Origin: Spirochaetaceae bacterium
GTDB lineage: Bacteria; Spirochaetota; Spirochaetia; DSM-2461
Assembly: GCA_051531975.1 (NCBI GenBank)
Contig: JAOPTT010000004.1
Coordinates: 128,001-192,000, forward strand
Reading direction: 5' to 3'
DNA length: 64,000 bases
The notes under the pieces were generated by a model. The model searched no databases. It was not told where the DNA came from and saw nothing but the letters and a program-made list of their open reading frames with translations. The translations under genes were made by a program, and so were the position numbers. Of this stretch, positions 10-63,894 are shown piece by piece (the first letter of the stretch is position 1; each line of letters begins with the position of its first letter).

Positions 10-1086
10 ATGAAATCATTAGTTAAGCTAGTTAGTGTTACAACATTAACATTAGTTTTATTTACATCATGTAGTGGAAAAACTACAGAGGTTACAACTA
101 CAGAAGCATCTGCACCAGTAATTGAAAAAGAAAAATCAACTCTAGAAATGGTTAAAGAACGTGGGAAAGTTATAGTAGGTGTTACTGCTGGTGTTCCAGG
201 TTATTCTGCTCCTGATAGTGATGGTAAATGGCAAGGATTTGATGTCGATTTAGCAAAAGCAATTGCAGCGGCTGTATTAGGTGATGCTGAAGCTATTGAG
301 TGTAGACCATTAAGTGCAAAAGAGAGATTTACAGCACTTCAGTCAGGTGAAATTGATGTTCTAAGTCGTGTAACAACATGGACAGCTTCAAGAGATGCCG
401 GTTTGGGGCTTAATTTTGCAGGGGTTAACTACTACGATGGTCAAGGTTTTATGGTTTCAAAAGAGTCAGGGATTACATCTTTGGCTGAGTTAGATGGTGC
501 AACAATTGCAGTTCAAGCTGGAACTACTACTGAACTAAACTTATCAGACTACTTCAGAAAAGAAGGTTTGGACTTTGAGTTAATTGCATTTGAGAAAAAT
601 GACCAAGCTACTGCTGCATTAGAGGCAGGTAGAGCAGATGCTGTAACTAGTGATCAATCACAGTTGTACGCATTAAGAACTAAATTTAAAAACCCAGATG
701 ACTTTATTATGTTATCAGAAGTTATATCTAAAGAGCCACTAGGTCCTGTTGTAAGACAAGGGGATGATGAGTGGTTCGATATTGTTAAATGGTCTCTGAT
801 TGTTATGGTAAATGCAGAAGAGTATGGAGTTACATCAGCTAATGTTGATGAAATGAAAGCATCTAGTACTAACCCAAATGTTAAGAGAATGTTAAGTGTC
901 GAAGGTAAATTATATGAAGGTTTTGGTTTAGAAGCAGACTGGGCTTATGACATTATTAAGCAAGTTGGTAACTACGGAGAAAGTTTTGATAGAAACCTTG
1001 GAATGGGTTCTCCTCTTAAAATTGATAGAGGTTACAACGCACAATGGAATGAAGGTGGATTACACTACGGAATCCCTTTAAGATAG
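10..1086 (+). CDS. aapJ: General L-amino acid ABC transporter substrate-binding lipoprotein (AapJ/BztA family)
   Basis: Lipobox LFTSC; family motifs ERFTALQSGEIDVLSR, ISKEPLGP, IKQVGNYGE. Confidence 0.9.
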   Translation: MKSLVKLVSVTTLTLVLFTSCSGKTTEVTTTEASAPVIEKEKSTLEMVKERGKVIVGVTAGVPGYSAPDSDGKWQGFDVDLAKAIAAAVLGDAEAIECRPLSAKERFTALQSGEIDVLSRVTTWTASRDAGLGLNFAGVNYYDGQGFMVSKESGITSLAELDGATIAVQAGTTTELNLSDYFRKEGLDFELIAFEKNDQATAALEAGRADAVTSDQSQLYALRTKFKNPDDFIMLSEVISKEPLGPVVRQGDDEWFDIVKWSLIVMVNAEEYGVTSANVDEMKASSTNPNVKRMLSVEGKLYEGFGLEADWAYDIIKQVGNYGESFDRNLGMGSPLKIDRGYNAQWNEGGLHYGIPLR

Positions 1087-1100
1087 TTTCTTATTTAGTA

Positions 1101-1132
1101 GACACCTTTAATCCAGGTTAAAGGTGTTTTTT
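1101..1132 (+). terminator. Stem-loop with U-tract after aapJ (terminator or mRNA stabiliser)
   Basis: ACACCTTTAA-tccagg-TTAAAGGTGT followed by T run. Confidence 0.7.
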
Positions 1133-1157
1133 ATTACAAAACAGGAGTTCTACTTAC

Positions 1158-2327
1158 ATGAAGAAATTTAATATAAAGAATATATCAATACAGACTGGGA
1201 TAATTATATTCTTGGTTGTACTTTTTATTTTCTTCGCAAATACCTATGCCTATAATATCAATAAAAGAAACATTGGAATCGGGTTTGGATTTCTAGACGA
1301 TACCGCTGGTTTCTCTATCAGTCAGACATTAATAGATTACGATGAGTCTGATACTTTTGGTAGAACATTTTTAGTTGGCCTATTAAATACACTACTTGCA
1401 TCATTTATAGCTATAATTTTAGCTACAATTCTAGGTTTTTTTGTTGGACTTCTTAGAATGTCCAAAAACAAACTTTTAAGCAATATCGCAAAAGGCTATG
1501 TTGAGCTTTTAAGAAACATACCCCCACTTCTGCATGTACTTTTTTGGTACCAGGTTGTGTTTCTAAATATTTTACCTCCATTTAAACAGTCATTTAATCT
1601 TAATAATTGGTTATATATAAATGTTCGAGGGATTACAATTCCTTCCTTCCTTCCAGGGATAAATGCTCCAACTTTTAATATTTTAGTATTTGTTTCTATA
1701 GCAGCTCTGATATATATTTCTAATGTCAAAAAAATTCAGGTTCTTCGAGGTGTTCATAAGGTTTTATGGCCATGGAGAATTATTGTTATTTTAATTCCAG
1801 TAATATTTGCACTTGTTGCGCTGCCATACGAAATACTTTTACCAGAAATGGCAAAATTCAAGTTTAAAAATGGTATGACATTAAGACCTGAGATGTTCTC
1901 TGTTGTAGTAGCTCTTAGTACTTATACATCTACTTACATCTCTGAAATTGTTAGAAGTTCAATAGCCGCAGTTCCAAAAGGGCAGATGGAAGCAGCCAAG
2001 AGTTTAGGATTTAATAACTGGGATAGACTTCGGCTTATTATAGTACCGCAGGCAATGAGAACGATGATACCGCCTGTTACTAATCAGTATTTAAATATTA
2101 TTAAGAATACATCTTTAGGTATGGCTGTTGCTTATCCTGATTTAACTTCGGTATTTGCTGGGACTACTTTAAACCAGACTGGGCGAGCTTTAGAGGTTAT
2201 GTCGTTAGTTATGATTACATATTTAGGAATAAGTCTTTTCACCTCTTTAATAATGAATTGGTATAACAAGTCAATTATTAATAAAAAAGGAGAAATGTTA
2301 AGCAAGGAGGATATTCCCTATGAGTAA
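1158..2327 (+). CDS. aapQ: Amino acid ABC transporter permease (AapQ family)
   Basis: Hydrophobic; GLLNTL, YVELLRNIP, EIVRSSIAAVPKGQMEAA motifs; AGGAG RBS. Confidence 0.85.
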   Translation: MKKFNIKNISIQTGIIIFLVVLFIFFANTYAYNINKRNIGIGFGFLDDTAGFSISQTLIDYDESDTFGRTFLVGLLNTLLASFIAIILATILGFFVGLLRMSKNKLLSNIAKGYVELLRNIPPLLHVLFWYQVVFLNILPPFKQSFNLNNWLYINVRGITIPSFLPGINAPTFNILVFVSIAALIYISNVKKIQVLRGVHKVLWPWRIIVILIPVIFALVALPYEILLPEMAKFKFKNGMTLRPEMFSVVVALSTYTSTYISEIVRSSIAAVPKGQMEAAKSLGFNNWDRLRLIIVPQAMRTMIPPVTNQYLNIIKNTSLGMAVAYPDLTSVFAGTTLNQTGRALEVMSLVMITYLGISLFTSLIMNWYNKSIINKKGEMLSKEDIPYE

Positions 2328-3384
2328 AAATCTTAAAAAGATTAAAACAGATTATTTTAATACTCCAATAAATGGATTTTTCTCCATAGTTGCACTATTT
2401 ATAATTGTGAAATTTGGAATTTGGTTTGTTAACTGGGCTATTTTAGATGCAGTATGGTTTGGGGAAACTCGGGATGTTGCAAATAAAGATGGTGCTACAT
2501 GGGCATTTATTATTAATAAAATAAGATTTTTCATGTTTGGTTTTTTTCCAAAAGAAGAGATCTGGAGGATAATTGTAGCGGGTATACTTATAGTTCTAAG
2601 TTTTATTCCATATTTTATGAAAAGAATTAAACATAAGCTATTTGTATTTGCTGGTCATATGGTTATATGGCCAATAATTATATTGATTTTTCTCTCTGGA
2701 GGTGGAATCTTTTCCGATGTTTCTACAAATGATTGGGGAGGTTTAACCCTTACTTGTATATTGTCATTGTTAGGACTACTTTATTCATTTCCAATTGGTG
2801 TAGGTTTAGCCCTTGCTAGACGAAGTGAACTTCCAGTAATTAGAGGTTTATCAATTGTTTATATTGAGTTTTTTAGGGGTATACCTCTAATAACTATACT
2901 TTTTATGTCTTCAGTTGTTGTTCCATTCTTTTTACCCGATGGTGTTTCGTTGGATAAAATTGTAAGAGTTGTAATTGGGATGACATTTTTTCAATCAGCT
3001 TATTTAGCAGAGGTTATTCGTGGAGGTTTACAAGCTATTCCAAAAGGACAATATGAGGCTGCAGAATCTTTAGGCTTTAAGTTTGGATTTCAATCTTATC
3101 TAATAATATTACCCCAGGTTATAAAAGTTACAATGTCAAATATAGGTGGAATATCAATCTCATTTATTAAAGATACAACACTTGTTTTAATTATTGGAAT
3201 GTTTGATCTATTAGGTATAGTGAATCCATTAGCTAGTGATAGTAATTGGTTAGGAATGGAACCTGAAGGTCTGGTTTTTGCTGGATTTGTTTATTGGGTT
3301 ATATGTTTTATTACATCAAAGATTACTGACAAAGCAGAATACAGATTAAATACAATACCTGAAGTTAGTGGAGAGATTAAATGA
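2320..3384 (+). CDS. aapM: Amino acid ABC transporter permease (AapM family)
   Basis: [36 protein letters not shown] motifs. Confidence 0.85.
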
Positions 3385-4142
3385 GTGAAGTTTTAAAAGA
3401 AGACGATAGTATAATTACAATAAATAAATTAAATAAATGGTATGGTGATTTTCATGTTTTAAAGGATGTTGACTTAAAAGTCTCTCCAGGAGAAAAAATT
3501 GTTGTTTGTGGACCTTCTGGTTCTGGGAAATCTACATTAATTAGATGTATTAATCATTTGGAGAAACACCAAAAGGGTTCAATTAATGTTATGGGTCATG
3601 AATTAACTCATGACATTAAAGACATTTCATTAATACGTCAGGAAGTTGGAATGTGTTTCCAAAGTTTTAATCTTTTTCCACATCTTTCTATTCTTGATAA
3701 TTTAACTTTAGCACCTATATGGGTTAGGAAGATTTCAAAAAAAGAAGCAGAAAAAATTGCTTGGAAATATTTAAAACGTGTAAATATTGCTGAGCATGCC
3801 TTAAAATTTCCATCTCAATTATCTGGAGGACAGCAACAGAGAGCTGCTATAGCCAGAAGTTTATGCATGCAACCTGAAATTATGCTATTTGATGAACCTA
3901 CATCTGCATTAGATCCGGAAATGGTAAATGAAGTATTAGATGTAATGGTATCCTTAGCAGAAGAGGGTATGACAATGATTGTTGTTACCCATGAGATGGG
4001 TTTTGCCCGGAGAGTTGCAGACCATGTCATCTTTATGGATGAGGGTAGAATAGTTGAGAGACAAGTACCTGAAAAGTTCTTCAAAAATCCTGAAAATGAG
4101 AGAACTATAGAATTTCTAAAGCAGATACACGCAATTTCATAA
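3381..4142 (+). CDS. aapP: Amino acid ABC transporter ATP-binding protein
   Basis: Walker A GPSGSGKS, signature LSGGQQQR, Walker [10 protein letters not shown]. Confidence 0.9.
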
Positions 4143-4183
4143 TAGTTAAGGCTAAATCTTCTAATGGATTTAGCCTTAACTAT
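4142..4183 (+). terminator. Perfect 17-bp stem-loop ending the aap operon
   Basis: ATAGTTAAGGCTAAATC-N8-GATTTAGCCTTAACTAT directly at the aapP stop. Confidence 0.7.
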
Positions 4184-4199
4184 GTGGTAAAATGCTATT

Positions 4200-4376
4200 A
4201 TGAATGAAAAAATTGGACAATCTTTAATTCGATTAGATCTTTTATCTTTTGACCAAGCTGAAGAAGTTCTTAGAGTTCAACAGGAAGAACCCCATAGAAT
4301 ATTTGGTGATATCGCAATGTCTCTTGGGTATATTAGCAGTGATGATTTAGACGGTTTTATCGATAATAGTAAGTAA
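4200..4376 (+). CDS. 58-aa stand-alone MshEN-like (putative c-di-GMP-binding) protein, not in the ORF track
   Basis: Translated by hand: MNEKIGQSLIRLDLLSFDQAEEVLRVQQEEPHRIFGDIAMSLGYISSDDLDGFIDNSK; two RLGxxL..GxI-like repeats; TGnTAAAAT 6 nt before ATG. Confidence 0.7.
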   Translation: MNEKIGQSLIRLDLLSFDQAEEVLRVQQEEPHRIFGDIAMSLGYISSDDLDGFIDNSK

Positions 4377-4418
4377 TATTGTTAGCCATGTATTATACTA
4401 CTATTAAGAGGTTTAAAA

Positions 4419-4652
4419 ATGAAAAGATTTACATGTAAAGAGATCATGAATGGTGAAGGTGGCTGCGATAAAGTATTTGAAGCAGAAACAGCTATGGACA
4501 TATCAAAAATAAGTTCTGGCCACTTTATGGAAACTACAGATGAAGCCCATAAACCTATGAGGGATATGATGACCACCGGGCATAGTAAAGAAGAGGCGGA
4601 CAAATGGTGGGCATGGTTTAGTGCCGAGTGGGATAAAAAAGAACTTAGTTAA
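4419..4652 (+). CDS. Small putative metal-binding protein (DUF1059-like)
   Basis: MKRFTCKE..GGCD...H...H pattern; GAGG RBS upstream. Confidence 0.6.
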   Translation: MKRFTCKEIMNGEGGCDKVFEAETAMDISKISSGHFMETTDEAHKPMRDMMTTGHSKEEADKWWAWFSAEWDKKELS

Positions 4653-5862
4653 GTTTATCTACTATTAACTTTGATGTGGAGAATGCTGCCTGGATGTTAT
4701 AACCTCCAGTATCTCCATCTATATCCATAATTTCTCCAGCTAAAAAAAGACCAGGTAAAATTTTAGATTCCATAGTTTTTCTATCAATCTCAGTTATATC
4801 TACTCCACCTGCAGTAACCATTGAAGCGTTAAATCCTAGTTTTGATGATACTTTAAATGGGAAGCTTAATAGATGGTTCACAAGTTTACTTTTAACCTTC
4901 TTATTTAACTCTTTTCCAGTTGAAGTTGAAGGGATATCTAGATAACTACACAAACTTTCTACCATAGATGCTGTTAACCCCAACTCTTTTAGAATTTTTT
5001 TAATAGTAATCTTTGATGCACTGTTTAGGATTTGCATTATTTCAGTTCTTTTTTCTTCTTTATTATTGCAACTGATTATAGATACAGCTAAAAGATCGGC
5101 TTTATCTATAAATCTAGAGTTATTTAATATACCTGGACCTGAAAGACCATGATGGGTAAATAGAACATCTCCGGTTTTTTGTAGATATCTTTTAGTTTCC
5201 GAATTTCTAAAAAATTCTATATTTGATCCCTTTACAGAACTACCAGATAGATTTTTAAATGGATAGTTTTCAACTTTTATACCAACTAATGCTTGGGTTG
5301 GATCTATGATTTTATGACCTAGGGATTTTGCTAAAATATAACCTGAGCCATCTGAACCAGTTTCAGGATATGACTTACCTCCGGTTGCTAATACAATATT
5401 TTTTGCTTTATAATTATCAGTACCACAGTTTACAATAAAACAGTCTGATTGCTTTTGTATAGAAAGAACTTTACTGTTATATTTGATTAAAGTACCATTT
5501 TTACTAATTTCTCGTTGTAAAAAATCAATTACAGTTTGGGCTTTTAATGTCTCCGGGAAAACTTTACCATCATCTCTGATTTCTAGCCCTAATCCAATTG
5601 ATTTTAACCAATCTCTATTAGCCTTAGTTGGGAAATTTAGCAGTGCCGCTTTTAAAAAATTACTTTTCTTTTTATCTCCAAACCGGGTTAAAAAGTCCTC
5701 TGTAGAGTCCATGTTTGTTATATTACACATGCCTCCACCAGTTATTAGAATCTTTTGCCCTAGACGTTTCCCACCTTCAATAAGTAGGTTTTTTCCACTA
5801 GTTAAGTTCGCCGCAGTAAAAAGTCCTGCAGCACCACCACCAATTATTATCGTTTTATACAA
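4645..5862 (-). CDS. HI0933/BaiN/YhiN family flavoprotein
   Basis: GGGAAG FAD motif, GQKILITGGGMCNITN, TGGKSYP, DIDGDTGGYNIQAA. Confidence 0.9.
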   Translation of the reverse strand: MYKTIIIGGGAAGLFTAANLTSGKNLLIEGGKRLGQKILITGGGMCNITNMDSTEDFLTRFGDKKKSNFLKAALLNFPTKANRDWLKSIGLGLEIRDDGKVFPETLKAQTVIDFLQREISKNGTLIKYNSKVLSIQKQSDCFIVNCGTDNYKAKNIVLATGGKSYPETGSDGSGYILAKSLGHKIIDPTQALVGIKVENYPFKNLSGSSVKGSNIEFFRNSETKRYLQKTGDVLFTHHGLSGPGILNNSRFIDKADLLAVSIISCNNKEEKRTEIMQILNSASKITIKKILKELGLTASMVESLCSYLDIPSTSTGKELNKKVKSKLVNHLLSFPFKVSSKLGFNASMVTAGGVDITEIDRKTMESKILPGLFLAGEIMDIDGDTGGYNIQAAFSTSKLIVDKLN

Positions 5863-5864
5863 AA

Positions 5865-7118
5865 TTAGACCCTTTTAATGTAAATTCTAGAGTTTCTCTC
5901 AGAGTTATAAATATCCTGTTTCCACTCTGGTAGATCCTCTATTGTTCCTTTTTGGAAACCAATAGACTCAAACCAGTCAGAGGTTCTTGTTGTTAATACA
6001 AAAAACGTTTTGATACCTGTTTCTGTACCTTTTGTTATTAGGTATTCAACAATGGCTTTACCTGTACCCATCTTATTAGAGGAAGATGCTGTTGCAAGAC
6101 CTGCAATTTCACCTATATCACCATCTTTTAAGTGAAGTGCACCACAAGCATGTATTTTTTTATCAATTTCATAAACAACATAGTCATCCAATGTGTCTTT
6201 AAACTGATCAACTGTTCTTTTAACAAGTATTCCTTCATTTACAAAAGGCTTCATTAGATTCATCACATCGGTTATATCTTTAGACATCATTGGTCTAATC
6301 TGCTCATATTCGTTGGCATGAATCATTGTTCCAACACCGGTATTAGAAAATATCTCTTTTAAGATTACACCCTCTATTCTGCCATCAACTATATGAACTC
6401 TTTTTACACCATTGTTACAAGCTTCAACACCATAATCTACTAGAGACTTTGTTTCACCTTGATATAATTCAGCTTCATTTAAGTCCATTCTGCTAAGACC
6501 ATTTAATCTTTCGTGTTCTCCTATAAAAAACAACTTACTAGACTTTAGGGTTAAACTAATCGCTGTTGCAAGTTCAGTACTACTTATATTGTATGGTTTA
6601 CCTATTGAGTTCCAGCCTATACATGGAAAAATTGGTACAAGATCATCACCAATAATTTTAAGTAGTGACTCTTTAGAAATCTTATCTACAACTCCTGTTT
6701 CCTGATAATCTACACCATCTAAAACACCCTTTCCTCTAGCATGTACCCAGTTCCCAATAACTGCAGGTATCTTAGATCTGGTTAAAGAAGTCATTACTCT
6801 ATTTGCAACATCAAATGCTGCCATTTTAATAAATGGGATAGTCTCATGGGTTGAGATTCTAATACCATTGTTCATAGTTGTTTTTACATTATATTGCTTT
6901 AAAATTCTATCTATATGATTATGGGCACCAGGGACAATTACAATGTTAATACCAGCATCTTTTAACATTGCTAAATCTTTAATTAATCCATGAAAGTTAT
7001 CACTTTCTAAAATACTATTCTCTATCTGAAAAACAAAAGTTTGTTCCTTAAATCTTCTAGTATAATAAAATACCTCTCTAATTAGATCTACACTCTCTTT
7101 TAATTTATCTCGTTTCAT
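5865..7118 (-). CDS. argA: Amino-acid N-acetyltransferase (N-acetylglutamate synthase, kinase-like + GNAT domains)
   Basis: N-terminal AAK-like domain (GVKRVHIVDG..EIFSNTGVGTMI); C-terminal GNAT with VLTTRTSDWF and YNSERNSRI. Confidence 0.85.
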   Translation of the reverse strand: MKRDKLKESVDLIREVFYYTRRFKEQTFVFQIENSILESDNFHGLIKDLAMLKDAGINIVIVPGAHNHIDRILKQYNVKTTMNNGIRISTHETIPFIKMAAFDVANRVMTSLTRSKIPAVIGNWVHARGKGVLDGVDYQETGVVDKISKESLLKIIGDDLVPIFPCIGWNSIGKPYNISSTELATAISLTLKSSKLFFIGEHERLNGLSRMDLNEAELYQGETKSLVDYGVEACNNGVKRVHIVDGRIEGVILKEIFSNTGVGTMIHANEYEQIRPMMSKDITDVMNLMKPFVNEGILVKRTVDQFKDTLDDYVVYEIDKKIHACGALHLKDGDIGEIAGLATASSSNKMGTGKAIVEYLITKGTETGIKTFFVLTTRTSDWFESIGFQKGTIEDLPEWKQDIYNSERNSRIYIKRV

Positions 7119-8365
7119 AGGTTTCCTTTTTTTAAGAAGTAGCTGTCCAGCATATCCTGTTCAAATTCTTCATTTGAGCTATATTCTCTATTAAATACAT
7201 CCATCCAGAGTTTTTTATCCTCCATACACATGTAAAAAAATACATCCCTATGCCATTTATCGAAGGAATTGTATAAAAAGCTGAACATTTTATTCTTAAT
7301 ATCGTAGGTATATGACTGTTTCCCCTCTGCATCGGCTAAAGGAATCTGTAAAATCTTGGATTTGAAGTTTCTACTTCTAATCTGTTTAATAACTGGCTTT
7401 ATAAAAGTTAAAGTACCAATGGATATTAAAGCTACCATTTGGGAGTTAAAATTATCCATTATCTTTGTGGCTATTTCCTTGTATTCATTTTCCCATCCAG
7501 TGTAATAAACCATAGGGTGAAAGTGGAAGCCAACTAATATTCCCTTATCATGTATCTGCTTTGCTGCTTCTAATCTTTCAGATAATGATGATGTTAAATG
7601 TTCCTCGTTATCTATAACTGTTTGCGTATTTAACGACCATGTACAAATTATATTTTTAGGAACCTGACACTCTAGTAGATACTTTATGTTGTTCGACTTA
7701 GTTTTAAGTTCCAATATTACATTAGGGTTCTCTCTGGCAAAGTTAAATAGGTGCTTTAAATTATCTTCTCTATTACCCCACATCAGAGAGTCGGAAGATT
7801 GCCCTGTACCAATATGATACCTTTTATTAGAGTCTAGTTCTAAATTATCTAACTTCAATTTAAGGTTCTTTTCAAAGAGGATTTTTCCACCTTTATAAAA
7901 AGACTGGATTGTACAATAACTACAGTCATAACCACAGTTAATAACAGAATCTAATGTTTTTAAATTACAACACCTTGTTTTATCCGATGCTACCGGACAG
8001 TCTCCTAAAATGGTTCTATCCTCTTTAATATCTACAAACTTAATATCATCTTTTTTATAATCCGATAGGGGAGTGAATCCCTGGTAATCTGTGGGTTCAT
8101 TCTTTAGTTTTAACCAGGTCTCTTTTACAATCCCAGTCATGTAAGCATTCAGAGCTTTATCTTTTAATTCTGACTCTGCTTTTGGCCAGTAAAACTCTAA
8201 AGCTTCCTCATCCCAGGACTCTAGGTCTATAGATATATCTATTAATTGTTTAATATCCTGATACGATAATCTAAACTCGCTAGCAACATTAGTGATAAAT
8301 AATCTGTTAATTCCCCCTAGCCTTAGCCAGGGTTTTGTATCAAAAAACTGGGATATTTTACTCAT
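7115..8365 (-). CDS. Radical SAM protein, spore photoproduct lyase (SplB)-like family
   Basis: CGYDCSYC cluster motif, GTGQSSDSL, LELKTKS, WSLN, GFHFHPM, YMCME. Confidence 0.75.
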   Translation of the reverse strand: MSKISQFFDTKPWLRLGGINRLFITNVASEFRLSYQDIKQLIDISIDLESWDEEALEFYWPKAESELKDKALNAYMTGIVKETWLKLKNEPTDYQGFTPLSDYKKDDIKFVDIKEDRTILGDCPVASDKTRCCNLKTLDSVINCGYDCSYCTIQSFYKGGKILFEKNLKLKLDNLELDSNKRYHIGTGQSSDSLMWGNREDNLKHLFNFARENPNVILELKTKSNNIKYLLECQVPKNIICTWSLNTQTVIDNEEHLTSSLSERLEAAKQIHDKGILVGFHFHPMVYYTGWENEYKEIATKIMDNFNSQMVALISIGTLTFIKPVIKQIRSRNFKSKILQIPLADAEGKQSYTYDIKNKMFSFLYNSFDKWHRDVFFYMCMEDKKLWMDVFNREYSSNEEFEQDMLDSYFLKKGNL

Positions 8366-8607
8366 TAGCCAATTTTAAACTGTTTTAGATTTCTATGCTA
8401 TATCAGGATATTTAAAACATACTAATATTCTGTATTCAGTTTTTTAAAAACACCTTACTTGGATATAACATATAAGAAGTCATATCGTTGTAAAGTTTAT
8501 TCATATATCGGGTATAAGTATGATTTACTGTTAAAGTTATAGTACTTTCGGCTGATATTGTTCAATTAAAACTTTATATGTGTATTTAGGGTAACTATAT
8601 ATAAGTC

Positions 8608-8818
8608 ATAGGGAAAATCCCTATATGAAATGAAGAGTCTGCCTCATATACGGATAAACTATCGGATGGTATATTTAGAACATATTAAAAAGTAATAAAA
8701 ATAAAGTTAATTAAAAAAAGGTTTTTGTTTTTATTTAAAAAAGTAAGATTAAAGTGAATTGAAAAAAGTAAAAGTTTATTTAAAAGTTGAGGGTTTGTAA
8801 TGGTACAAACCCTTTTTT
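8608..8818 (+). ncRNA. Cassette copy 1: palindromic box, promoter, putative ~137-nt AAAGU-repeat sRNA (about 8682-8818) and terminator
   Basis: ATAGGGAAAATCCCTAT 8608-8624; TGgTATATT -10 at 8670-8675; 7 AAAGT motifs; terminator AGGGTTTGTA-atgg-TACAAACCCT-T5; homologous to two other copies. Confidence 0.65.
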
Positions 8819-8826
8819 ATTTATAA

Positions 8827-9432
8827 TTAGCCTCTATAATTTAGAGCAGATTTAAAATTATGTTTGTTAGTTATGAATATTTGTTTTTTGAATGATATAA
8901 AGTCAATATCCCCATCTAGTTTAAAAACTTCTTTTTCATCAAGATCTACTAACATATTATCAGTTAAAACAGTGTTTGCAAATTGTCTAACTTTTTTTGT
9001 ATTCCAAGCGGCTGAAACTTTTCTAACTGAGTATAATTCCTGATCATCAAATATTAATCTTGCTACATAAAACCAAGATCCTAATAGTTCATCAGGCGTT
9101 ATTGCTAGTTCGGGTTTAGGTGTTGAATTTATAGTCTGAAGAATTTCATCAAAGTCAGTTTCACTATTTTCTATAACTAGGGCGTTATTTGGTTCTTCGT
9201 TATTTTCTTTTTTTAGATCTGTAATACTTTTTATATAATAAATTTTATTTGTAGTTATTCCTTTTAGCTTAAAATGTAGATCACGTTCTAATTTTAGTTC
9301 TTTAATACTGTATTTTGCTTTTTTATCTCTAAGGGTTCGTTTGACTATAAAAAAGGTTAATTTTGCATCATGCCAGTTTACCTCTTTTAGATTGTCTAAT
9401 ACTTGATCCATTTCTTGCACTTTTTTCTCCAA
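8827..9432 (-). CDS. KwaB-like (DUF4868) protein, apparently N-terminal domain only
   Basis: VFKLDGDIDFISFKKQIFITNKHNFKSALNYR resembles my recollection of the DUF4868 core; 201 aa versus about 300 aa for typical KwaB; start codon uncertain. Confidence 0.55.
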   Translation of the reverse strand: MEKKVQEMDQVLDNLKEVNWHDAKLTFFIVKRTLRDKKAKYSIKELKLERDLHFKLKGITTNKIYYIKSITDLKKENNEEPNNALVIENSETDFDEILQTINSTPKPELAITPDELLGSWFYVARLIFDDQELYSVRKVSAAWNTKKVRQFANTVLTDNMLVDLDEKEVFKLDGDIDFISFKKQIFITNKHNFKSALNYRG

Positions 9433-9461
9433 ACTTTTTTTATATACTAATAACCCTTACT

Positions 9462-9488
9462 ATATCGGCATAAATACTTATAACTAAA
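9462..9488 (-). promoter_or_regulatory. Candidate sigma-28 (FliA) promoter for the KwaB-like gene
   Basis: Minus strand reads TTTAGTTA-N11-GCCGATAT versus consensus TAAAGTTT-N11-GCCGATAA. Confidence 0.5.
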
Positions 9489-9713
9489 TAGGGAAAATCC
9501 CTATGTAAAATGAATAAATGACCTCATATACGGATATCAGATGTGATGTTATATTTAAATCATATTAAAAAGTTAAATAAATAAAGTTGATTAAAAGAAA
9601 GTATTAAGAAAAAAGTTTAAGTTTTATTTAAAAAAAGTAAGAGCAATGTTTATTTCAAAAAGTATTTTTTAATTAGTATTCTAAGGGAATGTAATGGTGC
9701 AGTCCCTTTTTTT
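9488..9713 (+). ncRNA. Cassette copy 2: palindromic box, promoter, putative ~152-nt AAAGU-repeat sRNA (about 9562-9713) and terminator
   Basis: ATAGGGAAAATCCCTAT 9488-9504; TGtTATATT -10 at 9550-9555; 6 AAAGT motifs; terminator AAGGGAaTGTA-atgg-TGCAgTCCCTT-T5. Confidence 0.65.
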
Positions 9714-9831
9714 ATGCCCTTTTTCTATAATTAATCACACTGACAAATTAAACTTATTCGGTTGTCTATAACATTTACAAAAGCCTTAAAGAAATTACTT
9801 ATTCAAATCTCCTATTAGTGGTTGTTTTTTG

Positions 9832-9883
9832 TTGACAGCGAGCAATTGCTCACTTAGTATATTGTAGAGCTCTATCTCTACAA
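9832..9883 (+). promoter_or_regulatory. Sigma-70 promoter with palindromic operator in the spacer, plus a downstream inverted repeat
   Basis: TTGACA(9832)-17 bp-TAGTAT(9855); GAGCAATTGCTC 9840-9851; TTGTAGAG-N6-CTCTACAA 9862-9883. Confidence 0.65.
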
Positions 9884-9914
9884 GGTATAAAACCAATATT
9901 AGGAGAAACATAAA

Positions 9915-11921
9915 ATGAAAAAATCTACAAAAAGAGGATTAATTATCCTTGGAGTGATTATCTTATTAATAACATATGTTGGAGTAACTGTTTCAGTAGA
10001 TCTAAAAAATAACAATGCTATTGTAAAGATTCCACGTGATAAACCTGAAAGTGGTGAAGGGAGAGGTAGTGTTGGTGATGTCCTTGGTCAGATTATTAGG
10101 GACGGAGAGTACACCTCTAGTATGATTAGAACCATTGATTATTTAAATGGTCGACATGACTGTGCTGATTTCCGACTTCCTGTAGCTATGCACCTATTAT
10201 ATGAATTCCCTGATAAACTAACAAATGAAGATCTTACTGATTTAAAACAGGCAGTTTTAAACTTTAAATATTGGATGGAAGACCCAGGTTATGACAGTAT
10301 GTGTCACTGGAGTGAAAATCATCAGATTCTTTTTGCAACAGGAGAATATTTAGCCGGTCAGTTATATCCTGATACAGTTTTTACTAATACAGGAGAGAAG
10401 GGGTCATGGCATAAAGAAAGAGGTAAGTCCCGGGTTTTAGCATGGCTTGAACAACGTTGGAACCATGGGTACATAGAGTGGAATTCCAATACATATTATA
10501 AAGAGGACATCGCACCACTTGCAGCACTAATTGAGTTTTCTGGGGATGATGAGGTACTAATAAAAGCACAGATGGTTATGGATCTTATGATGTACGATAT
10601 GGCAAGCCAATCCTTTAAAGGGGCATTTGTTTCAACTAGTGGACGATCCTATGAAACTAAAAAAATGGCTGGTCATCAATCATCCATGAAACGTTATACT
10701 GAGATTTTAAGTGGATATGACGTAGATTCTAATTTTCCAGAAGACATTTATGGTGGTAACATGGATATAACCTTCATGACTTCTAAGCGATATGAAATTC
10801 CTAGTGTTTTCAAAAAAATAGCCAGAGATGATAAAGATACTAGAATTATTAAAGCATCTACAGGTTTAGATTTAACAGAGCTTAAAGGATATGATCTGAT
10901 AGGACAGGAACCACACCAGATTTTAATGCAGTGGGGAATGGAAGCCTTTAGTAATCCTGAGATTGTTAATAACTCTATTAAATATATTGAAGATAATGAA
11001 ATGTTTAAAAACTCAGACCTTTATGCCTTTAAGGACTTTAACTTCAAGATACTTAAAAGATTAAACTTAATACCAACTATAAGTAAGCTGATAAATCCTC
11101 AATCAAACGGTGTTGCAATCCAGAGAGCTAACCAGTATCTATATAAAACCCCCTATTATAGTATCTATACTGCTCAGGCATATCACCCAGGTTTTTATGG
11201 AGATCAACAACATATTGCAGGTGTTACATTATCTAATGATCTTAGTGTTTTTAATGCACACCCAGCAGTTGATGAGGGTGATCGTGGACCTAATGGCAAC
11301 TCGCCTAAATACTGGGTTGGCCAAGGTCACTTTCCTCATACTGTTCAACATGAGAATGTTAACCTATCTATCTACCGGACTCCTAAAAAGAAAGGTATGA
11401 TGGAGGCAAAGCTTCTTGATTATACCCATGGATATTTTCCAGAGATACAATTTGATGAATCCTCCATCGAGGGCAACTTAGCTTTTGGTAAGTTAGGAGA
11501 TGCTTATATCGCTTTTATAACGACCAACGATCTTAGTTACAAAAAGTATGAAGAGATTACTCGGGATTGGCAGGGTGAGAATTATGATCTAATCCAACCA
11601 GGGAAAGAGGTTTACTGGATTACGGAAGCATCTGATGTAACTGTTGATGGTTCATTTAGTACTTTTAAATCTAGAATTAAAGAACAAGCAAAAACTATAA
11701 CCTACGATGGTAAAAAAATCTCTTATACCTCTATGGGTAGAGAGTTAAACCTAGAGTTTAAAGGTGACTTTAAGGTAAACGGCGAGGTTATGGATCTTAA
11801 TTACGATCGTTTTGATTCTCCATATATTCAGGCTAACCGAACACCAACTGAGATGACGTTTAAGTTAGGTGATAAAGAGTTATACCTAAACTTTAAGAAG
11901 ATGATTCGAGAATATAACTAG
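9915..11921 (+). CDS. Membrane-anchored conserved hypothetical protein, possibly heparinase II/III-like lyase fold
   Basis: N-terminal TM helix; WSENHQILF and GYIEWNSNTYY motifs; AGGAG RBS; function inferred only loosely. Confidence 0.5.
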   Translation: MKKSTKRGLIILGVIILLITYVGVTVSVDLKNNNAIVKIPRDKPESGEGRGSVGDVLGQIIRDGEYTSSMIRTIDYLNGRHDCADFRLPVAMHLLYEFPDKLTNEDLTDLKQAVLNFKYWMEDPGYDSMCHWSENHQILFATGEYLAGQLYPDTVFTNTGEKGSWHKERGKSRVLAWLEQRWNHGYIEWNSNTYYKEDIAPLAALIEFSGDDEVLIKAQMVMDLMMYDMASQSFKGAFVSTSGRSYETKKMAGHQSSMKRYTEILSGYDVDSNFPEDIYGGNMDITFMTSKRYEIPSVFKKIARDDKDTRIIKASTGLDLTELKGYDLIGQEPHQILMQWGMEAFSNPEIVNNSIKYIEDNEMFKNSDLYAFKDFNFKILKRLNLIPTISKLINPQSNGVAIQRANQYLYKTPYYSIYTAQAYHPGFYGDQQHIAGVTLSNDLSVFNAHPAVDEGDRGPNGNSPKYWVGQGHFPHTVQHENVNLSIYRTPKKKGMMEAKLLDYTHGYFPEIQFDESSIEGNLAFGKLGDAYIAFITTNDLSYKKYEEITRDWQGENYDLIQPGKEVYWITEASDVTVDGSFSTFKSRIKEQAKTITYDGKKISYTSMGRELNLEFKGDFKVNGEVMDLNYDRFDSPYIQANRTPTEMTFKLGDKELYLNFKKMIREYN

Positions 11922-11940
11922 ATATATCAATTGTTGATAT

Positions 11941-11963
11941 AAGGAGCCCCTTGGGCTCCTTTT
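11941..11963 (+). terminator. Intrinsic terminator between convergent genes
   Basis: AAGGAGCCC-ctt-GGGCTCCTT-TT. Confidence 0.75.
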
Positions 11964-12022
11964 AAATATAGAATAATAAATTTTCTAGACGGAACTTGTA
12001 TTACGAAAGTAGTGTAGATTTA

Positions 12023-14200
12023 TCACTCAACATCAAAATAAGATATTTCAGATATAATACTAGACACCATCTCTTTATTGGTTAAACTAACGTTCATTAT
12101 ATCATCTACAGCAGTTTTTATTTCAGAAGTACTCGATGTAATTTCATCTATTTGAATAGTGCTGTCCTCTGCCATCTCTTTAAGTTTTATCACTTCGGAT
12201 AGTACAAGAGAGCTTCCAGCTTGGATCTCAGAGGCTCCGCCTTTAACAGTGATTGCAATCTGGCTCATATGATCCAAAGATTCTAGAATCTGCTCGCTGC
12301 CCTGCTTCTGTTCAATAACTGCCATTCTAACTTCTTCACTTCTTCCATTAACTGTTGATATCATAGTTTGAATATTTGTAAAACTATCTACAGTATCTTT
12401 TGAACTTATAACTATATCATTAATCAATATATCAATGTTTTTTAGAATATCTGAAACTCCACGACTCTGTTGAGTTGTAGACTCTGCTAATTTTCTAATT
12501 TCGTCAGCAACAACACTAAAACCTTTTCCTGCTTCTCCAGCATGAGCAGCTTCTATTGCTGCATTCATTGCTAATAGATTTGTTTGACTTGCTATATTGT
12601 TAATGATCTGGTTCGTCTGCATTAGTTTTTTTGACTCCTCAGCTATAGTTTTTATCTGATTACTACTAGTGTCTACTTTTTGCTGACCCAATTTACTTGC
12701 TTCTGTTAAATCCACAGTTGATTGATAAACCCTGTCCATATTTTCTGAAACACTAACTATTGATCCAACCATCTCTTCTATTGAGCTTGAGGATTCTGTA
12801 ATTTGATTATTTTGTTTGTTAATAGATTCATTTAAAGATTCAATATTACTGGAAATTTCTGTTACAGCAGCAGTTACCTCCTCAACACTATCTAGTTGTG
12901 ATCTGAAATGACCATTTATTGAGGTTATATTTGATGATACTAAAGATATTGAGGCACTAGATTCTTCAGAACTTGAAGACAGAGTGTCGCCAACTTCTCC
13001 TAATGATATACAACTACTTTTATTTTTTCCTATAATTTGAATTAACTTTTTAACCATTCCCATAAATGATATTGAGAGATCGCCAAGTTCATCATTCTTA
13101 AAAAGAGGTTTAGCTCCATGTTCCGTATCAAAATCTACTTTTAGATCACCATTAGCTACTTTTGTTACTACATTTTTGATAGCTAATATAGGTCTATAAA
13201 TATCCCTAATAATATAAATGCTAAAAAGTACTAAGCAAGTAAGTATAATTGTAATAGAGATGATATATAACCACATAGATCTTTTTGCCAATGATTTAAA
13301 GCTAGTTATAGTTAAATAGAAGTCTTCAATTAGTTGCAGTTCTACATCAAGCATAAGATTAATCTTTTTTGACATAAGATCGTACCAATGAGTTGGATCA
13401 ATTTTACCAAGTGTATCAGAACCCGCTTTTTCAAAGGCTATATCTCTTAGCCTCTGTACTTCTATTACAACATCTCCACTTAATGATTCATTATATATTT
13501 TTTGTTGGTGTGGTTCAGCGTCCGAGAGAAAAACATTAATAAAAACATCTTGACTTACTACGAGATTATTAAAGGTTTTGAAACCTTCAAAATCCAAACG
13601 GTCTGCGGCAAAGGCACTACTTAGAACAGCTCTCTCAATTCCTGCCCTCTCTTTTCCCATAAGAAAATTACTATATGCATTTAAACTTTTTCTAATTTCA
13701 ACAGTAGGAGTATTATATCCAATATAACGGATCAGATCTAAAATCATTTTATGCAAGTCTGTATACCATTTGATTCCTACGTCTATGCTTAAGTTATCTT
13801 TATTGATACTTTTTCTATGACTAATTAATCCTTTAGTTTCAGCTATAAAATTATTTACTTTCGTATTAAATTCTGACCCAAATGATTCCGTGTCAATTTC
13901 TGATAAATAAGTTATTAATTCATTAAGCTTTTTATCAGTGAGAAGTCTCTGTTGTGGTAGTTCTGATGTAAACTTAAGCCCAGCGCTACCTATAAATCCG
14001 GCAGTCATACCACGTTCTTTCTGAGATTCATGTACAAAAGCGCTCATTTTTACAGATATTGTAGTTAATATTTCCGAGTTATTAACATCCCTTAAGTGAG
14101 TTGTTAGATTAGTTATAGTGATAGCTGAAAAAAATAGAATTATTATCATTGGTAATATTGTAAGTAAAGATATTTTGGATTTGATTGTAAACCGTTTCAT
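12023..14200 (-). CDS. Methyl-accepting chemotaxis protein with NIT (nitrate/nitrite-sensing) domain
   Basis: HESQKERG and [12 protein letters not shown] motifs; two TM helices, [39 protein letters not shown]. Confidence 0.9.
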
Positions 14201-14277
14201 ATGGATTTCCTTGTAATAACCTCTTATGATATTGGTTATTATTACTATTATAAGCTAAATAATAGGTTGTTACAAAT

Positions 14278-14901
14278 CTAATGAGCTTTTTTCATTTTAT
14301 TATTCTTATAAGTCTGTTGAAGTTTTACCATTTGTCTGAATATTGATATTAACCCATCGGGGTTGATATCCTTATTACATACTCCAGATTCCTGTAGCTC
14401 TTTAATTAAGAAATAAGTTGACTCAATTGTTGAAAGGCAAAAATTTGCAGGCTGTTTTTTTATTTCAAAAGCCGATCGATACTCTTTTTTAAATGATAAT
14501 TTGGGCAGATTCAGAAGTGATGGGCTTCTTGTTATCATTTTTTTTGCAAATGACCATGTTGCATCAATTAAAAAAATCAATAATTCCCTATCTTCCCCAT
14601 ATTTCTTAAAATCAAATGTTTGAGCAAAATGTGCATCTTCATCGGGGTAGAGAACCATAGGAAAATATTCGGGACTGTTTATTAGTTCTTGTACTCTTAT
14701 GTTATTATCAAATGTTTCATCTATAATTATTTCTGAATTAACTATTGTTAAACTTGCTAACCGACCAGTACCTGTTTTTTGTTTATAAGCTTCTTTGGGA
14801 TGCATTAAAAATACAAACTTAATATTAGGCTCAAAAGGTTCTATATATTTGCAATAACAAGTTTTAATGGGCCTATAACATTTGTAACACTTCGTAATCA
14901 T
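14278..14901 (-). CDS. DTW-domain tRNA-uridine aminocarboxypropyltransferase
   Basis: N-terminal CxxC..CxC, HPKE, TGRL, LIDATW, LSTIES. Confidence 0.85.
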   Translation of the reverse strand: MITKCYKCYRPIKTCYCKYIEPFEPNIKFVFLMHPKEAYKQKTGTGRLASLTIVNSEIIIDETFDNNIRVQELINSPEYFPMVLYPDEDAHFAQTFDFKKYGEDRELLIFLIDATWSFAKKMITRSPSLLNLPKLSFKKEYRSAFEIKKQPANFCLSTIESTYFLIKELQESGVCNKDINPDGLISIFRQMVKLQQTYKNNKMKKAH

Positions 14902-14934
14902 TTAAGCAGTCTACCATAATTTCCCTATTTATAA

Positions 14935-15159
14935 ATAGGGAAAATCCCTATATAAAATGAAGAGTATGCCTCATGTCCTAAATTAGAATGTGGGTGTATA
15001 TTTAGAACATATTAAAAAGTTATATAAATAAAGTTAATTAGAAAAAAGTTTTAAGAAAAAAGTTACTTATTTATTTAAAAATGTAAGAGCAAAGTTTATT
15101 GAAAAAAGTAAAAATTTATTTTGAAATCTAAGGGTCGTAACAGTACGATCCTTTTTTTT
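14935..15159 (+). ncRNA. Cassette copy 3: palindromic box, promoter, putative ~151-nt AAAGU-repeat sRNA (about 15009-15159) and terminator
   Basis: ATAGGGAAAATCCCTAT 14935-14951; TATATT -10 at 14997-15002; 6 AAAGT motifs; terminator AAGGGTCGTA-acag-TACGATCCTT-T6. Confidence 0.65.
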
Positions 15160-15166
15160 GTCCATT

Positions 15167-16027
15167 TTATTTTGTTACTCTAAAATGATATGGCGAAATC
15201 CCAGTATTCTTTTTAAATTGAGATGAAAATTCATATTGTGATTTGTAACCAAGTTCATCTGCTATCTGTTTTATTGATCTATCCAGGGATATTAACATCT
15301 GACAAGCCATATCAATTCTTCTTCTAACTATATACTTCCCAGGAGATACTCCAATACTCTCTTTAAATACTTTTCTAAATGATTCATAACCTAAGCCATT
15401 ATTATTACAATACTCTATTAGATTTATACGCTGGCTTAAATCTTTAGTTAAATCAGAACAGCTTTTATCTACCACTTTCTTAGGGATATCTCTTTGATCT
15501 TTAAGTTTACACTGGTTAAATATGCTTTGTAAAAGAGTTATACTTTTGATTAACAGGTCAGGTAGTTCAGATTCGGCGCAGTTTTCTAGTTTTATCATAC
15601 AGTCAAAAATGCTATCTTCTATAGTTTTATTAGGTGCCAGTTTATATACAGGGATTGTTCTATTTATGATTCTCATAGATACCAAAAAGTTAAATATTTC
15701 TGTACCAAAATCCATATAACACTCAGACCACTTACTGTCAGGATCTAATATTGTAGTATGAGTTTCTCCTGGGAATCTTTGGAAAATTGATCCAGATTTT
15801 AATTTGTATTGATTCCCTTCTGAATCAATATATAAACCAGAACCTCTAATTACATATATTATAGAATAGTAGTAGAATTTAGAGTCTTTTTCATCAATCT
15901 TCTTACCAAATTTATGTAAAAAACCAAAACCTAATTGCCCTCCAGCTTCATTTATACTAACCGACCGTATTACTTTGTTGTCTAGTGTATTATCTATTCC
16001 TTTATAACTCATAATACAAAATACCAT
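15167..16027 (-). CDS. AraC family transcriptional regulator
   Basis: N-terminal cupin; C-terminal SIKQIADELGYKSQYEFSSQFKKNTGISP; divergent from the GH2 gene. Confidence 0.9.
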   Translation of the reverse strand: MVFCIMSYKGIDNTLDNKVIRSVSINEAGGQLGFGFLHKFGKKIDEKDSKFYYYSIIYVIRGSGLYIDSEGNQYKLKSGSIFQRFPGETHTTILDPDSKWSECYMDFGTEIFNFLVSMRIINRTIPVYKLAPNKTIEDSIFDCMIKLENCAESELPDLLIKSITLLQSIFNQCKLKDQRDIPKKVVDKSCSDLTKDLSQRINLIEYCNNNGLGYESFRKVFKESIGVSPGKYIVRRRIDMACQMLISLDRSIKQIADELGYKSQYEFSSQFKKNTGISPYHFRVTK

Positions 16028-62388: not shown

Positions 62389-63894
62389 TTAGACATTCTC
62401 ATATCTAATTCTACCATATTCTTTATCAAGGGAGAACTTTACTCTGCTTAGCTTCTGTTCAACCTGATACCGCATATGGCAAATCTCTATTGTTGTTCCT
62501 GGAAATATTGTTCCATGAACGATTAATAAACTGGTGTCATTTTTGTCTAATCTAACCAACAAACTTCTAGAAAAATTATTTAAACTGTTTAATTTGTTTT
62601 TTAGTGATAGATATGCATATTTTATCTTATTTTTCTCTATTCTGCTATAATCTTTGTTCAAGAGTTTCTGTATTTTCTCTATCTCTTTATTAATTTCCTT
62701 AGTCGCTACTTGTACTTTGGCTAATTTTTCTTTTATTTGGAAGTCTATTCCCAAAATTATTTTAGTTTCAACTTCATGCTCATTGCCTATGTTTCCTGCG
62801 ATGATCCCGTTTTGAGAACATATTTCACCACCAACAATTGTTGCCTTTTTATCTAATAATATCCGGTCCGAGCTATAAATGAACGAGCTTAGAACCCCTC
62901 GTAATATGTTTATTGAACCAAAACTTTTAATGTATGCATGTTCTATATGAGCGGTTGTAACAATACCTTTACATTCAATTAAGTGATTTTTTGAACCTAT
63001 AATACCTTCCTCAACTGTTAGATTATGTCCACAACTTATATCTGCTGGTTCAATACAACCCTTAACAATTATGTCACCACCTGAAATAACAGAAAATCCT
63101 TCTCGAACTGTTTTTGTTATATTTATATCACCTTTATATTCAATATCTCCCGTGTGATAATCTACATCAGTTTCAACTGTTAATAGAGGGTCTATAGTTA
63201 TTATATTTCCTTTTATAATTTTGTATGTCCCATCAATTTCAGAGTATAGATGGTTGTTGTCTATGTATATATTTTCACCGATTTTTAAAATATTTATTGT
63301 TTTTTTAGGACAAGGAATCTCTATTTTCTCTAAGTTTAAACCTGGGTTCCCTTTTACTTCAGGAATCATCTCTCCTAAGAATTCCCCTTTTTGAATAATA
63401 ATAAAGGATTGTACACAGTGATAATTTACCTGCCCTGAATTTGTAAATGTTGGTTTAAATGTGGCAAAGAGACTCTCTTTTAAGATTATATGTCCAGGAA
63501 TTTTAAACTCAACTGGTCTACCAGACGCAATTTTTACTTCTGGAATAATTTCTCCGTCAAACATGATTCTATCATATGTATTTCTTATAATATCCCAGTC
63601 AACTACTGAATCTAAATAACTTCCCCATTGTAATATTTCATCTTTTATATTTTCTATGCTTATTTCAAAACTTGAGTTTACTGGAGCTTTTAACAACATA
63701 AAGAAACCCATTTTCATGGAGTCCATACGAAACTTTAAAGATCCTGGAGATTCTATTTCTTCTTCGAAACTGTGTTCTATTTCTGAATTATAGAATCCTT
63801 CGCTTTTTATTTCGTTGTCCAATTCTGAGTCTTCTAATAACTTGTTCGTCCGATCTAAATTTTCAGTAATTTGAATACTTTTTTTATCAGTCAT
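62389..63894 (-). CDS. FapA/DUF342 family protein
   Basis: GQVNY, DVDYHTGDIEYKGDI.I...V.EGF, GGEI, GTIFPGT.IEI. Confidence 0.85.
   Translation of the reverse strand: MTDKKSIQITENLDRTNKLLEDSELDNEIKSEGFYNSEIEHSFEEEIESPGSLKFRMDSMKMGFFMLLKAPVNSSFEISIENIKDEILQWGSYLDSVVDWDIIRNTYDRIMFDGEIIPEVKIASGRPVEFKIPGHIILKESLFATFKPTFTNSGQVNYHCVQSFIIIQKGEFLGEMIPEVKGNPGLNLEKIEIPCPKKTINILKIGENIYIDNNHLYSEIDGTYKIIKGNIITIDPLLTVETDVDYHTGDIEYKGDINITKTVREGFSVISGGDIIVKGCIEPADISCGHNLTVEEGIIGSKNHLIECKGIVTTAHIEHAYIKSFGSINILRGVLSSFIYSSDRILLDKKATIVGGEICSQNGIIAGNIGNEHEVETKIILGIDFQIKEKLAKVQVATKEINKEIEKIQKLLNKDYSRIEKNKIKYAYLSLKNKLNSLNNFSRSLLVRLDKNDTSLLIVHGTIFPGTTIEICHMRYQVEQKLSRVKFSLDKEYGRIRYENV

Follow-up and report, generated by a model that had tools for sequence, protein, structure and literature searches.

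What is the function of a short cassette without a reading frame that recurs three times, always in the same orientation and with the same internal layout, between the genes of a marine spirochaete? The question is raised by a stretch of 64,000 nucleotides (nt) from a Spirochaetaceae bacterium (assembly GCA_051531975.1, contig JAOPTT010000004.1, positions 128,001 to 192,000 of the forward strand; G000:C4:128001-192000 in our numbering), which we refer to as the window and in which positions are counted from its first letter. The source genome, G000, comprises 5.46 Mb in 29 contigs and has a G+C content of 31.5%. The original prediction, made from the letters of this stretch, held that the cassettes encode small RNAs (sRNAs) that are switched on by an activator and that act as sponges for an RNA-binding protein through repeated AAAGU motifs. 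The structural side of that proposal, a multi-copy sRNA system with an activator box, has stood up well, with 24 matches to the cassette in four related genomes, a promoter spacing of 52 nt, and covariation in the terminator, while the sponge function stays an analogy. On the evidence set out below, the cassettes are likely to be real, regulated, stand-alone sRNA genes.

When the sequence is read, every element of the six-feature layout that had been described is found in all three copies. Each opens with the palindrome ATAGGGAAAATCCCTAT, of the form ATAGGGA-AAA-TCCCTAT, which is exact at 8608-8624 (copy 1, where it is centred about 66 nt before the predicted start), 9488-9504 (copy 2), and 14935-14951 (copy 3), read on the + strand. 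At up to three mismatches the window holds seven matches to this palindrome, made up of the three sites on both strands and one site with three mismatches at 62474; shuffled windows hold 0.42 on average, and none of 100 reaches seven. Next comes the motif ATGA-N10-TCAT (at 8630, 9510, and 14957), which belongs to a second promoter element on the + strand that reads AAATGAAG-N7-CTCAT in copy 1 (8628-8647) and copy 3 (14955-14974) and AAATGAAT-N7-CTCAT in copy 2 (9508-9527). In the cassette alignments this element contains invariant A, TGA, and AT columns; it overlaps the weak -35 region and in copy 1 extends from about -54 to -35. The -10 box, TATATT, lies 62 bp past the start of the palindrome in all three copies (8670-8675, 9550-9555, and 14997-15002, + strand), which in copy 1 places it 52 nt past the start of TCCCTAT. 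A scan for the sigma-70 consensus calls no promoter at any of the three cassettes, in line with the claim that a consensus -35 is absent. After TATATT, the start CATATTAAAAAGT is the same in all three.

The predicted sRNAs extend for about 137, 152, and 151 nt (8682-8818, 9562-9713, and 15009-15159, all on the + strand). Their bodies contain 7, 6, and 6 copies of AAAGT, as had been counted, or seven of the looser AAWGT in copies 2 and 3. Each ends in an intrinsic terminator. A terminator scan calls hairpins at 8789-8814 and 15130-15153, both followed by a U run; the hairpin of copy 2 at 9685-9706, with its U run at 9707-9713, has one internal mismatch and was missed by the scan, but it still folds. 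The alignment of the three copies has a mean column identity of 81% and is free of gaps from the palindrome to the predicted start, the first long indel falling in the body. All three copies lie between open reading frames (ORFs), and no ORF is common to them, the stop-to-stop frames in the bodies reaching at most 37 amino acids (aa).

The count of three is correct for the window and incomplete for the genome. A search with a profile of the three copies (nhmmer) found a fourth at G000:C3:232861-233053 on the - strand (E 2.7e-17), in which the box is a variant, ATAGTGA-GTTT-TCCCTAT, and the body is shorter. BLAST and pattern searches recovered the same layout from the other three genomes of the genus (g1), which is sampled here by four related genomes, G000 to G003. 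Two covariance models were used, with E-values that are rough because the calibration was shortened: R1, of 193 positions with the terminator stem supplied, and R2, which covers the RNA part without the promoter. At E ≤ 0.001, R1 gave 24 matches spread over all four genus genomes (4 in G000, 5 in G001, 7 in G002, and 8 in G003, that is 4-8 copies per genome) and no match in any of the remaining 34 genomes of the family sample, which corresponds to the whole order as sampled. The window copies score 135.4 bits (copy 1, matched at G000:C4:136606-136819), 121.7 bits (copy 2), and 135.5 bits (copy 3). The 19 matches of R2 all fall within R1 loci, so no copy without a promoter was found. Genome searches of the kind that the original prediction had suggested thus confirm the family and extend it well beyond the window.

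In a covariance search of 151 genomes of the class, only G000 and G001 match; two further weak matches (E 0.003 and 0.009) are ordinary terminators when read and were rejected as cassettes. A pattern scan of the genomes of 185,579 species returned 13 loci, two of them real and both in Spirochaetales metagenome-assembled genomes, and a strict pattern scan of Joint Genome Institute metagenome contigs returned 5 loci, none of them real (best model E = 0.15); diverged copies escape the patterns in both scans. A cmscan of the whole window against the 4227 families of Rfam 15 gave no match at the gathering score. At E ≤ 10 there are nine matches over 8400-15400, none of them to CsrB or RsmX/Y/Z or otherwise relevant, and the only one that falls on a cassette is sau-19, which lies on the terminator and reaches 21.6 bits against a cut-off of 80. 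In the portions of articles returned by a full-text literature search, no paper on an AAAGU-repeat RNA family was found. In the one metatranscriptome of the same sample, a single contig of 155 nt, about 92% alike, falls on the chemoreceptor gene and none on the cassettes, a result that carries no weight either way. Judged by its sequence, this is a new family of predicted RNAs whose motif and promoter box are also new, and it has so far been seen in one marine spirochaete genus only.

How the cassettes might be regulated can be read from their promoters. Promoters and bodies were compared in 23 distinct promoter-bearing cassettes, and invariant positions were taken from 14 aligned cassettes. 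The distance from the start of TCCCTAT to a -10 box of the form TAnnnT is 52 nt in 22 of the 23 cassettes and 53 nt in the other. Columns 11-50 and 61-70 of the promoter alignment are gap-free, and two single insert columns occur elsewhere, compared with hundreds of gap cells in the bodies of the same alignment. If the hexamer is taken as -12 to -7, an inverted repeat, (A)TAGGRA-N3/4-TCCCTAT, is centred near -66, and a second element, AAAWTGAR-N7/8-CTYAT, spans about -55 to -35 and ends at the position of a weak -35 (for example TTTGAA, TATTCA, or TATACG). Invariant positions are found in the right half-site (C-CTAT), in AAAWTGAR (A and TGA), in CTYAT (AT), and in the -10 box (T, A, and final T). 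Because the spacing is rigid and the -35 poor, we infer that the cassette promoters are activator-dependent.

The palindrome varies in a one-sided manner, with a right half, TCCCTAT, that is nearly invariant in the 23 cassettes and a left half that is variable. None of its seven pairs shows a compensatory change, and 82.7% of its cells are paired, versus 83.4% in shuffles. Given this one-sided variation, the lack of compensatory pairs, and pairing at the level of shuffles, the palindrome behaves as a protein-binding DNA site and not as an RNA hairpin. A word TTATAA or TATAA is seen 3-6 nt 5' of the palindrome in all four copies of G000 (in the window at 8598-8604, 9478-9484, and 14927-14933) and in several copies of the other genomes, and the conserved cassette may start about 10 nt before the box.

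This promoter is nearly exclusive to RNA loci. When G000 is searched with a profile of the promoter alone, its four RNA loci come out at E 1.2e-12 to 5.4e-11, and the next best match has E = 2. The only protein-coding unit found with a cassette promoter in the four genomes is a five-gene efflux operon of G001 (L101, G001:C1:281500-291500, 1074-7221 on the - strand), encoding an HlyD-type adaptor, an ABC ATPase, two FtsX/MacB-type permeases, and an outer-membrane efflux protein. Its promoter, near 7222-7290, combines the box with AAAATGA, CCTTAT, and a GATATT that resembles a -10, all at close to the cassette spacing, and it gives a partial hit with R1. With a promoter so nearly restricted to RNA loci, the activator would control mainly sRNA genes, and the same is true of GacA/UvrY and LuxO.

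Candidates for the activator itself were sought near the cassettes and through copies of its presumed site. An OmpR-type response regulator and a kinase located 5' of one G002 cassette were rejected, as their G000 orthologues (65% and 48% identity) are at C3:113400-114855, far from the copies. AraC-family genes adjoin 3 of the 23 cassettes. The autoregulatory route, in which the activator gene would carry a box of its own, led to two near-palindromes in G000 (2 mismatches), both of which fall inside ORFs. An exact TCCCTAT-NN-AAAWTGA at C2:376687 was also set aside; it lies at the 3' end of a kinase gene, before a receiver/HD-GYP-like gene in which no DNA-binding domain is seen on reading. With one mismatch allowed, this pattern occurs no more often than its reversed form, which served as the control.

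At the other end of the cassette, the terminator stem is paired in 96% of cells over the 14 cassettes, with compensatory change in 7 of 9 pairs. This level of pairing and covariation is matched by none of 500 shuffles, and slid controls are 30-54% paired. The compensatory changes indicate that selection acts on the stem as RNA. Along with the pairing, the terminator sequence itself is conserved (GAGUYUGUAAUGGUACARACUC), and its loop keeps AAYGG/AAURG while the stem covaries (e.g., at 8798-8803, 9694-9697, and 15139-15144), which hints that the loop may itself be recognised.

Between start and terminator lies a body of unusual composition. The 23 bodies, which amount to 1934 nt without terminators, are 52% A, 33% U, 11% G, and 4% C (85% A+U), and nearly all of their G is found inside AAAGU(U) units. 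When compared with 300 dinucleotide-preserving shuffles, AAAGT is seen 77 times where 32.5 are expected (z = 10), AAAAGT 62 times where 20.0 are expected, and AAAAGTT 41 times where 9.1 are expected; the fuller unit can be written AAAAGUU(A/G)AUU. Successive AAGT words are 14-15 nt apart in 31 of 57 cases, and a further 6 are separated by 27-29 nt with a degenerate AAUGU unit between them. The number of AAAGT per copy ranges from 1 to 7, and copies differ in length by whole units, such as a 13-nt block that is absent from copy 1. The best-conserved parts of the body are the unit nearest the 5' end and the final unit ahead of the terminator. Folding yields only weak and non-conserved A-U pairing (best-fold ensemble frequency 0.0025-0.064), with the terminator as the sole common helix, and the bodies are predicted to be unstructured. 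No array of the motif was found elsewhere in G000; the 14 hits of the array search comprise 4 in copies 2 and 3 and 10 that do not qualify as A/U arrays, and the reversed-motif control gave 5.

What kind of element combines these features? The cassettes have the general properties of trans-acting sRNA genes: they are intergenic, they have a promoter of their own and a terminator on which selection acts at the RNA level, and they conserve no ORF. We read them structurally as multi-copy non-coding genes on account of their distribution, the fixed spacing, the terminator covariation, the lack of an Rfam match, and the lack of target-site duplications, discussed below. The mechanism that we propose starts from paralogous stand-alone genes that would give rise to sRNAs of about 90-170 nt. 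An activator would bind the two fixed upstream elements of a sigma-70-type promoter with a TAnnnT -10 and a weak -35, and transcription would stop at the conserved intrinsic terminator. The unstructured A/U tract would display AAAGU(U) units multivalently and so bind and titrate an RNA-binding factor. The signal sensed by the activator would in this way be relayed post-transcriptionally, as happens with the decoy RNAs of the Rsm/Csr and Crc systems, although the motif and the partner would differ. A multivalent decoy would be expected to have the single-stranded tract, the confinement of G to the motif, the variable number of units, the redundant genes, and the dedicated activator that are seen or predicted here. 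By analogy with the known systems, a decoy mechanism for the AAAGU RNAs is put forward tentatively, as the likeliest of the actions considered but one that falls somewhat short of probable. That the whole would amount to a Csr/Rsm-like spirochaete switch, with a dedicated activator, 4-8 decoy genes, and an RNA-binding protein that is neither CsrA nor Hfq (a small RRM-type protein being one candidate), is a rather doubtful extension of it.

Known decoy RNAs resemble the cassettes in some respects and differ in others. GacA/UvrY activate the sRNAs RsmX/RsmY/RsmZ and CsrB/CsrC, which titrate CsrA/RsmA. Like the cassettes, these sRNAs are encoded by several redundant genes per genome, have a palindromic activator box whose spacing to a promoter with a poor -35 is fixed, carry a short motif in variable number, and end in an intrinsic terminator; their activator directly targets essentially sRNA genes only, and the cassette promoter is likewise seen in G000 at the four RNA loci only. 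They differ in that their motif is GGA displayed in hairpin loops, whereas AAAGU(U) is carried in an unstructured A/U tract, and in that the GacA box is TGTAAG-N6-CTTACA rather than ATAGGRA-N3/4-TCCCTAT. The cassette family also lacks an Rfam match and belongs to another phylum. In flagellated Gram-positive bacteria and spirochaetes, CsrA is known to be antagonised by FliW rather than by sRNAs. CrcZ and CrcY, which are driven by CbrB and titrate Hfq/Crc, resemble the cassettes in the nature of the decoy, an A-rich single-stranded repeated motif, and also have one dedicated activator and more than one copy in some species. However, CrcZ is transcribed from a sigma-54 promoter, whereas the 23 cassette promoters have TAnnnT at -12 to -7 and no GG-N10-GC. 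The target of CrcZ is Hfq, which was not detected by Pfam in the four genomes, and the motif of the cassettes, which again have no Rfam match, differs in its obligatory G-U.

Several points weigh against the reading of the cassettes as activator-driven decoy RNAs. The transcription of the cassettes, and the start site and size of their RNAs, are predictions inferred from the DNA. The cassette statistics come from four related genomes and from paralogues within them, and as the copies are non-independent, the counts overstate the case. Multivalency is not universal, since four of the 23 copies, all of them diverged, have a single AAAGT. The 14-nt repeat lies in a low-complexity A/U tract and could partly reflect tandem duplication instead of selection for binding sites. 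On reading the neighbours in the four genomes, no regulator or RNA-binding gene consistently adjoins the cassettes. As for known partners, Hfq was found in none of the four genus genomes with Pfam, the controls being positive, although very divergent Hfq-like proteins would escape such a search. A CsrA gene is present in three of the four (in G000 at C16:84763-84918; the fourth genome is 81% complete), and this has to be set against the absence of GGA from 18 of the 23 bodies; the other five hold 1-2. The small RRM-type protein mentioned above is a lead only. Small single-domain RRM proteins occur in 36 of the 38 family genomes, and none was found in the incomplete G002 and G003. G000 has a single small RRM_1-domain protein, at C6:270788-270997 on the + strand, in an open frame of 113 aa.

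The alternative that survives best leaves the genes as they are and changes what the RNAs do. In this account they would base-pair with mRNA or other RNA targets, using the AAAGUU(A/G)AUU units and a conserved central UAUUUAAAAAUGUAA block as redundant seeds. The multi-copy, activator-driven layout fits Qrr1-5 of Vibrio and the CiaR-dependent csRNA1-5 of Streptococcus equally well, as these are sets of at least 4-5 paralogous sRNAs of about 100-150 nt with a shared promoter that depends on a response regulator and a terminator. The csRNA promoters, moreover, have no -35, and their regulator site keeps a constant distance from the -10. The strong conservation of the 5'-proximal and last units is what is often seen in seeds, and a single AAAGT, as found in four of the 23 copies, suits a seed better than a sponge. 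The composition of the bodies argues the other way. Qrr RNAs and csRNAs, which the cassettes do not match in Rfam, pair through a C/U-rich seed (anti-Shine-Dalgarno or anti-AUG in the csRNAs), whereas the bodies here are 4% C, none of the 23 contains the anti-Shine-Dalgarno word CCUCC, and duplexes of A/U with a single G would be weak.

Searches for complementary targets also gave no encouragement to base pairing. At 4177 gene starts derived from crude ORF lists, words that could pair with the unit show no enrichment, ATTAACTTT occurring 8 times compared with 4-12 times for control words. Duplex energies of the copy 3 body at 900 of these 4177 starts have a 1st percentile of -19.7, which is within the range of 10 dinucleotide shuffles (-18.7 to -20.9). 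An array of complementary motifs was not found elsewhere in G000 either. The pairing tests used crude starts, regions of -40 to +20 only, and, for the duplex energies, one copy and sampled windows, so that they show no general excess of complementarity to start regions while a few specific targets could escape them. Taking both sides together, we consider base pairing less likely than a decoy mechanism, though not by a wide margin.

Could the cassettes instead be DNA-level elements? A repeat resembling a miniature inverted-repeat transposable element (MITE), or an A-tract array bound by a protein, might carry sequences that only look like a promoter and a terminator. The copies do lie scattered at non-syntenic sites where their neighbours are unrelated, a truncated KwaB-like gene has copies 1 and 2 on either side, and expression of the cassettes is a prediction only. 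Nevertheless, the marks of transposition are missing. The original prediction had named target-site duplications, a match to the end of an insertion sequence or MITE, and a match to a known Rfam family as signs that would count against it, and none of these signs was observed. No direct word longer than 6 nt is common to the two 40-nt flanks in any of 22 cassettes, and the longest shared word averages 5.45 nt, compared with 5.61 nt for mismatched flank pairs, so there are no target-site duplications. On reading, the cassette ends are not mutual inverted repeats. The order of promoter, body, and terminator is strict, and the compensatory changes of the terminator indicate that its stem is selected as RNA. 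Synteny holds for at least one position, as a cassette follows a xylose-isomerase-like gene in both G002 and G003 (55% identical between them). The period of 14-15 nt differs from the DNA helical repeat, which makes A-tract bending an improbable purpose. We regard a mobile or DNA-level element as very unlikely.

The KwaB-like ORF, related to Kiwa defence, lies between copies 1 and 2 at 8827-9432 on the - strand and is 201 aa in length. It covers profile positions 3-198 of 312 (PADLOC, E 5.8e-43) and is thus truncated at its C-terminus. An insertion of copy 1 into this gene was considered and rejected, as there is no KwaB remnant beyond copy 1. Cassettes are found in close pairs elsewhere too. 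Two lie about 450 nt apart in G002 (L046 1031-1649, G002:C1), and in G003 a pair flanks a 245-aa ORF; the G003 loci read for such pairs and for the position shared with G002 are L088 1501-2755 (C22) and L049/L074 (C31).

The genes that follow the cassettes, read from the crude ORF lists, bear on a last possibility. In 20 of the 23 cassettes, the downstream gene could be read; it is convergent in 11, co-oriented in 8, and in 1 is another cassette. The co-oriented genes begin 57-210 nt downstream and encode proteins of 668, 394, and 299 aa without a family match, a YhgA-like transposase, a metallo-beta-lactamase fold, an extracytoplasmic function (ECF) sigma factor, a DUF4097 protein, and a VCA0040-like protein. 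A cis-acting or toxin-linked RNA would be either a leader that attenuates transcription of the next gene or a repeat array of the type III antitoxin kind, directed against an endoribonuclease encoded alongside; we regard both as extremely improbable. A promoter, tandem short repeats, and an intrinsic terminator do recall ToxI-type arrays, and 8 of the 20 cassettes have a co-oriented gene close by. Against this, more than half of the downstream genes are convergent, the co-oriented ones share no relationship, and repeats recur every 14-15 nt and not every 35 nt or so (34-36 nt in ToxI). No toxin gene is conserved downstream, and no ToxN/AbiQ-like gene was seen beside any copy.

A few features of the surrounding genes in the window may be recorded. 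The 668-aa ORF about 200 nt 3' of copy 2 (9915-11921, + strand) carries a hydrophobic stretch at its N-terminus and matches nothing in Pfam, NCBIfam, or PADLOC. On the other side of the cassettes, a 416-aa protein (7115-8365, - strand) matches the spore-photoproduct-lyase (SPL) family of Pfam at E 1.2e-16 and reaches 70 bits against a cut-off of 400 for the NCBIfam equivalog, which makes it a distant SPL-like radical SAM enzyme. Its gene is translationally coupled to an N-acetylglutamate-synthase-like gene at 5865-7118.

To our knowledge, global switches that work through decoy RNAs, such as Csr/Rsm and Crc, are known almost only from Proteobacteria, and we know of no sRNA antagonist of an RNA-binding protein in spirochaetes. 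The anatomy of the cassettes is clean, with a fixed site, a short body built on one motif, and several copies, and this makes the activator, the signal to which it responds, and the reader of AAAGU directly testable. The covariance model can be used for the annotation of marine spirochaete genomes. Should the RNAs turn out to act by base pairing, they would still constitute a well-defined regulon specific to this genus. If they do form a decoy switch, they would represent a new class of decoy RNA and would lead to a new global RNA-binding regulator.

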